Shown here: positions 25,534 to 27,172 of the stretch, in pieces | Position numbering within the stretch: position 1 is the stretch's first letter | How the letters are laid out: every line of letters starts with the position of its first letter | Assembly: GCA_944363785.1 (NCBI GenBank) | Contig: CALVVF010000004.1 | Coordinates: 459 to 64,458, forward strand | Length of the DNA: 64,000 bases | Source: an uncultured Bacilli bacterium | GTDB lineage: Bacteria; Bacillota_I; Bacilli_A; RF39; UBA660 | Reading direction: 5' to 3' | The notes under the pieces: model-generated | The model's database searches: none | Seen by the model: the letters and a program-made list of their open reading frames with translations, nothing else | Told to the model about the DNA's origin: nothing | Position numbers and translations under genes: made by a program

Positions 25534-25549
25534 TGTTCCACGTGGAACA
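25534..25549. promoter_or_regulatory. parS site 2
   Basis: TGTTCCACGTGGAACA, a perfect palindrome. Confidence 0.85.
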
Positions 25550-25561
25550 TTGTGTATAAAT

Positions 25562-25577
25562 TATTTCCCGGGAAATA
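25562..25577. promoter_or_regulatory. NBS 1 (paired with parS 2)
   Basis: TATTTCCCGGGAAATA, 12 nt after the parS. Confidence 0.75.
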
Positions 25578-25751
25578 ATTCTCATAAAAAATCCAAAACT
25601 AAAATATGGATAAATCTCATTTAAGACTTTACTTATATAAAGTAATAATCAAAAAAACATGAAGTCATATAATCAAATAAAGGAGAATTTTTTTCATAAT
25701 CTCTATTATTTATGCAATAAAAACAACATAATTAAATAAATATTTCAACAA

Positions 25752-25767
25752 TGTTTCACGTGGAACA
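25752..25767. promoter_or_regulatory. parS site 3
   Basis: TGTTTCACGTGGAACA, the reverse complement of the canonical TGTTCCACGTGAAACA. Confidence 0.85.
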
Positions 25768-25778
25768 TTGTGCAAAAT

Positions 25779-25794
25779 TATTTCCCGGGAAATA
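25779..25794. promoter_or_regulatory. NBS 2 (paired with parS 3)
   Basis: TATTTCCCGGGAAATA, 11 nt after the parS. Confidence 0.75.
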
Positions 25795-25942
25795 ATTACT
25801 AGATGCAAATTTGAACAAATAGTTTTCAACAAGAAAACAAAAACTTTTCAAACCAACCACTGAATAAATAAACTATATGCACAAAATAAATAATTCTCTT
25901 TCTTATTAATAAGATTGTAATTCTATTGTTAATTTCTAACTA

Positions 25943-25958
25943 TGTTTCACGTGGAACA
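25943..25958. promoter_or_regulatory. parS site 4
   Basis: TGTTTCACGTGGAACA. Confidence 0.85.
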
Positions 25959-26140
25959 TATAATTCATATATAAAAATATAATAATTAATATACAACTTC
26001 AACACATATTAATACTTACAAAACTAGTAAAAAATCAAAAGAAAAATAGCATTATCTAATTAAAGAAACTATAATCCCTAGCTCAATATATAACTGCAAA
26101 TATCATTTAATTTCTCATTTCAATTACTTATACCCTACAA

Positions 26141-26156
26141 TGTTCCACGTGGAACA
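26141..26156. promoter_or_regulatory. parS site 5
   Basis: TGTTCCACGTGGAACA. Confidence 0.85.
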
Positions 26157-26168
26157 TTGTGTATAAAT

Positions 26169-26184
26169 TATTTCCCGGGAAATA
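26169..26184. promoter_or_regulatory. NBS 3 (paired with parS 5)
   Basis: TATTTCCCGGGAAATA, 12 nt after the parS. Confidence 0.75.
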
Positions 26185-26362
26185 ATTTTCCTATATCAAC
26201 ACTAATTTTCAACAGAAGAAGAACTAATAGAATACAGTAAAGCAAAACTAATAAATTTAAAAAGTTTATTCATAAACTAAGACAAAAGCAAAATAGAAAC
26301 ACACTGATATCTCTTGCCTATATTACAATAATATAATTTAAGATTTCGATCACAACCAGTAA

Positions 26363-26378
26363 TGTTCCACGTGAAACA
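26363..26378. promoter_or_regulatory. parS site 6
   Basis: TGTTCCACGTGAAACA, the canonical sequence. Confidence 0.85.
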
Positions 26379-26598
26379 TTGTGTATAACATACTCTATTT
26401 TCTTAATATAAAATACCCAGACTTTTTATTTACTGAACTAAATAAGTAATAGAAAAAAATATTTTTATCAAATAAAATAATAATAAATATAGACTATCAA
26501 TTACTCTTTCGAAATATACCTTTAAATTATTGTTTGATAATTAAAAACTATAATTTAAATTCCACTTACTGGTTATTTAAGCAGTTATATGATGTTAA

Positions 26599-26614
26599 TG
26601 TTCCACGTGGAACA
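26599..26614. promoter_or_regulatory. parS site 7
   Basis: TGTTCCACGTGGAACA. Confidence 0.85.
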
Positions 26615-26625
26615 TTGTGCAAAAT

Positions 26626-26641
26626 TATTTCCCGGGAAATA
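26626..26641. promoter_or_regulatory. NBS 4 (paired with parS 7)
   Basis: TATTTCCCGGGAAATA, 11 nt after the parS. Confidence 0.75.
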
Positions 26642-26748
26642 ATTTTTTTTTTACATCAACAACCAATTTTCAATAAAGAAAGAAACTAATAGAATATAAT
26701 AAAACACTACTGATAAATAAAAGAAAAACCTATTCGTTCTCTAACCAC

Positions 26749-26828
26749 AAATAAATAAATAAATAAATAAATAAATAAATAAATAAATAAATAAATAAAT
26801 AAATAAATAAATAAATAAATAAATAAAT
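26749..26828. repeat. (AAAT)20 tetranucleotide microsatellite
   Basis: 80 nt of uninterrupted AAAT units, counted directly, between NBS 4 and parS 8. Confidence 0.95.
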
Positions 26829-26886
26829 GTACTGCTGCTTTATTCATTCAATAATATTATCAACCACAATTATTTACAATCGACAA

Positions 26887-26902
26887 TGTTCCACGTGAAA
26901 CA
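26887..26902. promoter_or_regulatory. parS site 8
   Basis: TGTTCCACGTGAAACA. Confidence 0.85.
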
Positions 26903-27129
26903 TTGTGTATAAAATATATACTATTTCCTTGATCCAAATTATTCAGGATATTTACTAAATTAAATAAACAATAGAAAAAGTATTCTTTCTTATCAAATAA
27001 AATAACAAAAATATAGATCATCAGCTATTCTACTAAACTAATAAATACCTTCTTGAATTTAAAATTTTATAGAGCAAGCAAAACTGTATGATATGAAATT
27101 CTTCAAAAATTATTAAATCACTCACACAA

Positions 27130-27145
27130 TGTTCCACGTGGAACA
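27130..27145. promoter_or_regulatory. parS site 9
   Basis: TGTTCCACGTGGAACA. Confidence 0.85.
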
Positions 27146-27156
27146 TTGTGCAAAAT

Positions 27157-27172
27157 TATTTCCCGGGAAATA
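27157..27172. promoter_or_regulatory. NBS 5 (paired with parS 9)
   Basis: TATTTCCCGGGAAATA, 11 nt after the parS. Confidence 0.75.

Follow-up and report, generated by a model that had tools for sequence, protein, structure and literature searches.

Sequence analysis of a 64,000-nucleotide stretch of DNA from an uncultured Bacilli bacterium (contig CALVVF010000004.1; the whole stretch is referred to below as the window) revealed an array of two kinds of palindromic sites in the spacer between gyrA and the signal recognition particle (SRP) RNA gene ffs, next to which lies tadA. Sites of the first kind are those of the ParB protein (parS). Sites of the second kind have the sequence of the Noc-binding site (NBS) of Bacillus subtilis and are interleaved with the first. 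Judging from these sites and from the two cognate proteins encoded in the window, we think it fairly likely that the spacer is an origin-proximal centromere serving two proteins, i.e. a dual platform for the CTP-dependent clamps ParB and a Noc orthologue.

Results

Two classes of sites in one spacer

The parS sites match the 16-bp palindrome TGTTNCACGTGNAACA. Ten perfect copies and one with a single mismatch are present (Table 1), and these eleven parS-type matches compare with a mean of 0.09 in shuffles of the window, which is AT-rich (~29% G+C). No parS was found outside the array in the remaining part of the 64-kb window. The second class, the 16-bp palindrome TATTTCCCGGGAAATA, is represented by eight perfect copies where 0.03 would be expected. 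Five of the eight are packed into 1.6 kb of the array, and all parS together with these five NBS are confined to one 2.3-kb stretch. Around each of the eight NBS cores the full 22-bp palindrome AATTATTTCCCGGGAAATAATT is present. The core is identical to the oligonucleotide with which B. subtilis Noc was assayed in vitro, and the parS 16-mer is the ParB site (PMC8429893); a preliminary description of this DNA, which had taken the palindrome core for the B. subtilis NBS, was thus correct, since the two agree with the experimentally defined core.

The array NBS belong to parS units 2, 3, 5, 7 and 9, which gives the unit order -,N,N,-,N,-,N,-,N,-,- (N, unit with NBS). In these five composite modules the gap between parS and NBS is 12, 11, 12, 11 and 11 nt and is occupied by the linker TTGTGTATAAAT or TTGTGCAAAAT; the distance between centres is 28, 27, 28, 27 and 27 bp, and the NBS is located on the gyrA side in all five. 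The site coordinates, the 22-bp palindromes, the linkers of 11-12 nt and the centre distances of 27-28 bp reported previously were all confirmed on the window sequence. Alignment of the modules showed an invariant block of ~50 bp, made up of parS, linker and NBS, with flanks that have diverged almost to randomness. A simple tandem repeat was considered and rejected: Tandem Repeats Finder reports only (AAAT)x20 and an 11-bp AT repeat, the units being too diverged outside the 50-bp block. The former is a perfect microsatellite at 26749-26828, between parS 7 and parS 8.

Sequences adjoining the sites are of some interest as well. An asymmetric right flank, TTGTG(T/C)A, accompanies parS in nine of the eleven units, including most of those without NBS; it could represent an extended contact, a third factor or recent common descent. 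Extra palindromic flanks AATGTTCCACGTGGAACATT were also seen at parS copies (25534-27720). A half-site remnant, TATTTCC, is retained in the unit at 26887 and mutated site copies (TATTTCCCAGGAAATA and TGTTCCACATGAAACA) occur in related arrays, so array sites evidently decay and get replaced.

The spacer between gyrA and the SRP RNA gene/tadA, within which the array lies, is 2.56 kb long and non-coding. A search for open reading frames (ORFs) in it found nothing above 62 aa, and an Rfam search of it gave zero matches even at E = 1, the flanking SRP RNA excepted; a hidden gene or RNA in the spacer was ruled out on these grounds. The window contains the replication-origin gene run dnaA, dnaN, recF, gyrB, gyrA, with dnaA at 35373-36749 on the minus strand, and its GC skew changes sign at ~36-37 kb. 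The array is about 8-10 kb from dnaA/oriC (~9 kb from oriC), a distance that is origin-proximal in the sense applied to parS. Three further NBS, not listed in the preliminary description, stand alone at 18307, 39261 and 40794. As a result oriC lies between the array and the two NBS that flank mnmE.

Conservation of the mixed clusters

A pattern scan for parS-N(0-30)-NBS, using one genome per species, listed at least 120 other species with mixed parS/NBS clusters. As these species are related to one another, the counts do not represent independent events. The cluster occupies the same gyrA-tadA slot in essentially all of them. The listed loci come from uncultured gut metagenome-assembled genomes designated 'Bacilli', 'Tenericutes', 'Mollicutes' or 'CAG'; a few are titled discordantly (e.g. 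'Muribaculaceae', 'Bacteroides helcogenes'), yet they have the same gyrA/tadA neighbours. GyrA identity to the window across these loci is 46-94%. In the NCBI taxonomy the closest relative with a name is 'Candidatus (Allo)scybalousia intestinigallinarum', in Bacilli incertae sedis. The 120 loci together contain 477 perfect parS and 300 perfect NBS (487 and 308 if those of the window are included). In many species parS and NBS alternate strictly in compact tandem arrays whose period is 64-82 bp (64, 75, 76 and 82), one example being an array of seven parS and seven NBS with an 82-bp period.

To this we can add a sample of 21-kb origin regions that were anchored on DnaA and chosen without regard to parS or NBS. 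Among the clade members of this sample with sequence downstream of gyrA, both site types were present in 15 of 17, and in 13 of these 15 the gap between parS and NBS does not exceed 40 bp. No NBS was found in any of the 54 outgroup loci of the sample. Wherever a DnaA-anchored locus includes the noc region, the paralogue carries the residues QK.R at the four positions discussed below. The concern that the module might exist in this genome only is therefore removed by both the pattern scan and the site-unbiased relatives.

The two classes of sites remain distinct throughout. When the two discriminating positions were examined over 0.9 Mb of loci, 477 pure parS, 301 pure NBS and 4 hybrids were found, and perfect sites outnumber one-mismatch variants by ~9:1 for parS and ~7:1 for NBS. 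Because hybrids are almost absent and perfect sites prevail over one-mismatch variants, the sequence data indicate that selection maintains two classes of sites and that a different protein reads each. One alternative, that the NBS-type palindromes arose from parS by decay or variation and are read by ParB or by nothing, could draw on the fact that the two sites differ at only two positions per half-site and on the location of NBS inside a parS array. Decay would, however, fill the intermediates, and the ParB encoded here has the parS-specific pair R173/G201, and NBS also stand alone at conserved positions; we consider this explanation very improbable.

The possibility that the palindrome with the central CCCGGG is an RNA hairpin or an intrinsic terminator and not a protein site is the least probable of those considered, and practically negligible. 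It is a perfect inverted repeat, a T run follows the copies at 26626, 27157 and 40794, and the copy at 18307 folds on the minus strand better than shuffles (z = -3.2). However, when seven NBS contexts were folded and compared with shuffles the energies were mostly shuffle-like, the array hairpins being weak (-6.7 to -9.1 kcal/mol, z from -0.01 to -1.6). The terminator scan detected none in the array, the only one found being that of gyrA (27892-27855), and the empty Rfam search points the same way. Moreover, the exact 16-mer is kept in 300 copies over at least 120 species while its flanks are free to change, and it is the sequence of a known protein site whose cognate reader is encoded nearby.

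Two loci of the DnaA-anchored sample, L142 and L144, have SRP-RNA-like sequence within the parS cluster. The noc gene of L144 (719-1282), alone among the relatives, encodes H and not R at position 201 (QKNH), and this locus has no perfect NBS, only TATTTCCTGGGAAATA (18952-18967) by gyrA. That residue 201 and the site may covary was dropped as a proposal, this being a single case. The composite pattern was absent from a collection of viral contigs, and a mobile-element origin was rejected for that reason.

ParB and Noc-type paralogue encoded in the window

The genes at 44002-46886 encode, in this order, a Noc-type ParB paralogue, ParA and ParB, and are preceded by rsmG (42728-43414). The order rsmG-noc-parA-parB is also kept in relatives and is the same as the B. 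subtilis order, rsmG-noc-soj-spo0J. ParB carries the ParA-binding motif LGRGL at residues 19-23 and the gene of ParA adjoins its own; no such motif was found in the Noc-type paralogue. The mechanically called ParB ORF, with a TTG start, runs 44 nt over the end of parA (45963-46006), and the real start of ParB is probably the ATG at 45972.

It was demonstrated by Jalal et al. (PMC7383237) that four residues set the specificity for parS or NBS and suffice to switch it. According to these data the parS type has R173 and G201, and the NBS type has Q173 and R201 together with a lysine at 179 or 184, one such permissive lysine being enough. Alignment of the translations to the solved Noc structures gave QKSR at the four positions of the Noc-type paralogue and RMSG in ParB. 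The proteins designated in the preliminary description as cognate thus do carry the published NBS-type and parS-type residues. Sequence matches to the PDB agree with this assignment and are reciprocally best: the paralogue scored 216 bits with Noc and 167-185 bits with Spo0J, and ParB scored 220 bits with B. subtilis Spo0J and 155-159 bits with Noc. The CTP-switch motifs FQPR, GERR and ENLQR are intact in both proteins.

Absence of the membrane-targeting helix from the paralogue

The Noc-type paralogue contains the N-terminal CTPase domain of ParB and an HTH domain (PF02195 and PF17762). Its score with the Noc model TIGR04285 is 287.6 bits, under the curated cut-off of 315 bits. Between the DNA-binding and C-terminal domains there is a poorly conserved linker of 118 aa, rich in P, S and T and acidic (25 D+E versus 8 K+R). 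After deletion of this linker the alignment extends end-to-end (model positions 1-255 of 255) and the score rises to 294.6 bits, still below the cut-off. The C-terminal 64 aa give a weak match to model positions 214-255 (E = 0.017); this putatively Noc-like domain is well conserved within its own family.

The N-terminal amphipathic membrane-targeting helix is absent from the paralogue. Residues 3-4 align with residues 27-28 of the Noc proteins of B. subtilis and Geobacillus thermoleovorans, and the N-terminus coincides with the start of the NocN-delta-26 construct. A good ribosome-binding site precedes the start codon, and no in-frame start could be found upstream of it. The helix is needed for membrane binding and nucleoid occlusion (PMC7333895); its requirement for nucleoid occlusion is also attributed to PMC4331003 in PMC8429893.

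The same was observed in related proteins. All 120 closest homologues have QK[S/A/L]R at the specificity positions, and in 115 of the 120 the protein starts 14 residues before PNRFQPR and the membrane helix is missing. More distant clade members also combine the helix-less start with NBS-type residues. Among the 150 best 50%-identity representatives nearly all are N-terminally short, with the helix missing in ~144 of 149, and QK.R is present in nearly all that could be parsed. Members of this helix-less NBS-type family are 221-798 aa long (median 476), the variation being almost wholly in the linker. By sequence, then, the helix-less NBS-type Noc is a trait of a large family and not private to the window protein. 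Since the helix is absent and the score lies below the curated Noc cut-off, the paralogue is, on this evidence, not a canonical nucleoid-occlusion factor.

Periodicity of the gap between parS and NBS

In the histogram of gaps across the clade, values cluster near 10-11, 19-21 and 29-33 bp and are scarce near 3, 14 and 25 bp. A periodicity of ~10 bp is suggested by a Rayleigh test with a smoothed null, in which p varied between 0.0002 and 0.013 according to the unit of counting (pairs, locus-gap combinations, distinct linkers or linker families). The linkers between parS and NBS fall into 122 families, and their sequences have fully turned over. The periodicity suggests a constraint on the rotational setting of the two sites. 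We had considered that they are placed on opposite faces of the helix; this was dropped, as the phase moves from 0.52 to 0.22 turn when the assumed repeat is changed from 10 to 11 bp, and periodicity alone is claimed.

Other features

The coordinates of the array, its units and the neighbouring genes are collected in Table 1. The tadA ORF as called mechanically is overlapped at its 5' end by the SRP RNA gene, and the real tadA start is probably located further downstream. Elsewhere in the window a T-box leader (RF00230, 96.8 bits) was found at 12115-12317 on the minus strand, upstream of the ORF at 11587-12075.

Table 1. Location of parS and NBS sites, neighbouring genes and cognate protein genes in the window
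Feature	Position	Strand	Remarks
Whole array	25427-27710		11 parS-type and 5 NBS-type palindromes in the gyrA-ffs/tadA spacer
parS-like site	25427-25442		One mismatch, TGTTCCACGTAAAACA; no NBS
Module 1	25534-25580	+	parS 25534-25549, linker TTGTGTATAAAT, NBS core 25562-25577, 22-bp palindrome 25559-25580
Module 2	25752-25797	+	parS 25752-25767, linker TTGTGCAAAAT, NBS core 25779-25794
parS	25943-25958		No NBS
Module 3	26141-26187	+	parS 26141-26156, linker TTGTGTATAAAT, NBS core 26169-26184
parS	26363-26378		No NBS; right flank TTGTGTATAA retained
Module 4	26599-26644	+	parS 26599-26614, linker TTGTGCAAAAT, NBS core 26626-26641
parS	26887-26902		No intact NBS; TATTTCC remnant ~20 nt downstream, within 26903-26935
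Module 5	27130-27175	+	parS 27130-27145, linker TTGTGCAAAAT, NBS core 27157-27172
parS	27395-27410		No NBS
parS	27695-27710		No NBS; closest to gyrA
Stand-alone NBS	18307-18322		Perfect, 22-bp palindrome; pth-rsmI spacer; NBS near pth also in several related loci
Stand-alone NBS	39261-39276		Perfect; spacer upstream of mnmE, other side of oriC; NBS at matching position in some (few) close relatives
Stand-alone NBS	40794-40809		Perfect; mnmE-mnmG spacer; NBS at matching position in most close relatives
tadA	24815-25348	-	Next to ffs
ffs (SRP RNA gene)	25277-25365	-	Right-hand limit of array
gyrA	27923-30358	-	Left-hand neighbour of array, kept clade-wide
Noc-type paralogue	44002-45099	+	Noc orthologue by synteny; Q173 K179 S184 R201
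ParA/Soj ATPase	45197-46006	+	
ParB/Spo0J	45963-46886	+	parS-type residues R173 M179 S184 G201; ParA-binding motif LGRGL

Discussion

The following model is proposed for the array as a dual platform. Dimers of ParB would nucleate on the 10-11 parS palindromes and dimers of the Noc orthologue on the five NBS, each of which is 11-12 bp from a parS. Clamp closure at the respective site is expected of both proteins, because both retain the CTP-switch motifs, and sliding would then bring the two onto the same few kilobases. The Noc protein of Staphylococcus aureus covers 8-10 kb around its own sites. Clamps that slide kilobases from sites 11-40 bp apart would therefore have to share one DNA track, and the presence of both populations on it would produce a mixed nucleoprotein complex ~9 kb from oriC. 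Binding of ParB and Noc, their CTP-dependent loading, simultaneous occupancy and functional interplay, including the co-loading, roadblocking or cooperativity put forward in the preliminary description, are all inferred from sequence.

What the paralogue contributes is a separate question. Judged by its sequence it is unable to work by the known membrane-tethering route. With the membrane helix and the ParA-binding peptide both lacking, its target is more likely the DNA or the ParB complex; it might for example tune ParB spreading or condensation via its long acidic linker. Alternatively, it may influence oriC, as does S. aureus Noc, which restrains replication initiation.

A number of points weigh against the dual platform. 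Binding is predicted for organisms that are uncultured, from the sites and protein residues described above. The five modules of the window are copies of one another and not independent events, and adjacency could persist merely by unequal crossing-over amplifying a two-site unit. The preliminary description held the spacing to be fixed and the NBS to be always gyrA-proximal. This is true of the present genome and its closest relatives (DnaA identity 79-96%), in which each array NBS is 10-13 bp from a parS and on its gyrA side, but not of the clade as a whole, where gaps from 0 to >30 bp occur and the 114 pairs with a gyrA-side NBS are matched by nearly as many, 107, with the NBS on the opposite side. 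Such variation in spacing and side makes a rigid ParB-Noc co-complex unlikely. L142 and L144, the two remaining clade members of the DnaA-anchored sample, have parS only. The periodicity signal is modest and its phase is tied to the assumed helical repeat. Finally, the distribution of NBS was judged from the window and from loci of 8-21 kb, and the at least 120 matches listed give no ground for calling the pairing exclusive to the clade or absent from Firmicutes with a canonical Noc.

The main rival to the dual platform, in our opinion an unlikely one, is that two independent systems share one address. On this explanation ParB/parS and Noc/NBS each profit from origin-proximal multi-copy sites, and an ancestral chance adjacency was co-amplified and reshuffled by tandem duplication without any mutual influence. 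Composite units have visibly been duplicated in tandem to make the arrays, species differ freely in the gap and in the side on which the NBS lies, stand-alone NBS occur away from parS, and the NBS of B. subtilis and S. aureus are likewise enriched toward the origin, all of which such independence would accommodate. It is less easily reconciled with the short gap kept in most of the site-unbiased relatives that have both types, despite turnover of the linkers, or with the ~10-bp periodicity of the gaps. In addition, clamps starting so close to each other and sliding so far must meet, which makes full independence physically hard.

Ordinary nucleoid occlusion could also be envisaged, with the protein tethered to the membrane via a partner, or via some part of the linker or C-terminal domain not recognised as an anchor, and with the array NBS marking the origin region as a place not to divide. 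Orthology of the paralogue to Noc is indeed indicated by synteny, by the reciprocal best PDB matches and by the end-to-end TIGR04285 alignment obtained once the linker is removed, and the NBS is the same as the B. subtilis consensus. However, the required N-terminal helix is missing from the protein and from nearly all of its close and distant homologues, the Noc score is below the cut-off, the linker is acidic and poorly conserved, and the NBS are gathered at one locus and not scattered, at least within the window. These data make ordinary nucleoid occlusion improbable.

A further and rather doubtful possibility concerns the origin of Noc. The clade may have kept, or arrived anew at, a transitional state in the evolution of Noc from ParB, in which NBS specificity had been gained, there was no membrane helix and the sites were still inside the parS centromere.

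Comparison with known systems shows what is shared and what differs. With the Noc-NBS systems of B. subtilis and S. aureus the present one has in common the same 16-bp NBS core, a paralogue derived from ParB whose gene lies between rsmG and soj-spo0J, the residues Q173/K179/R201, the CTP-switch motifs and probably a Noc-like C-terminal domain. It differs from them in the lack of the N-terminal membrane-targeting helix, the start being that of NocN-delta-26, in linkers of 60-170 or more residues that are acidic and disordered-looking, and in a TIGR04285 score under the curated cut-off. In addition, the NBS of the window are concentrated in the parS centromere; B. subtilis and S. aureus have dozens of them, distributed across the origin-proximal half to two-thirds of the chromosome. 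As in other chromosomal ParABS systems with clustered parS, there are multiple perfect parS in one origin-proximal non-coding stretch, ParA and a cognate ParB with a ParA-binding peptide, and growth of site number by local duplication near the original site (reviewed in PMC7333895); unlike in those systems, the sites of a second paralogous CTP clamp are interleaved with parS at gaps of ~10-40 bp. Clean discrimination of two sites by two proteins, predicted here, is also the basis of an artificial tool employed in eukaryotic cells, but that tool puts the two site types at separate loci, whereas here the arrangement is natural and chromosomal.

In reviews and primary papers NBS are described as scattered, and the ParB and Noc systems are treated separately. 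Our literature search for mixed parS/NBS arrays or a helix-less Noc family found no description of either. The sites and the protein families are known; the interleaved arrangement and the helix-less form of Noc appear to be undescribed. The preliminary description had suggested an undescribed coupling of segregation with nucleoid-occlusion-type machinery; the novelty stands as far as this search goes, but the reference to nucleoid occlusion was an overstatement for a protein that is helix-less and scores below the cut-off.

Of the CTP-dependent DNA clamps, ParB and Noc have been studied best, and so far they have been handled as separate systems with separate sites. The array raises the questions of whether two kinds of clamp on common DNA run into one another, obstruct one another or co-condense, what role an NBS-specific Noc has without a membrane helix, and how Noc originated from ParB. 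The 47-bp module offers a compact, ready-made experimental substrate, and a probable centromere has been identified for a large uncultured group of gut Bacilli with reduced genomes. If the clade does represent a transitional state between ParB and Noc, the outcome would be a two-clamp centromere, in which CTP-gated clamps are loaded side by side and forced to interact on one track. It would then provide a natural system for cross-talk between clamps of the ParB family and for the role that Noc had before nucleoid occlusion.

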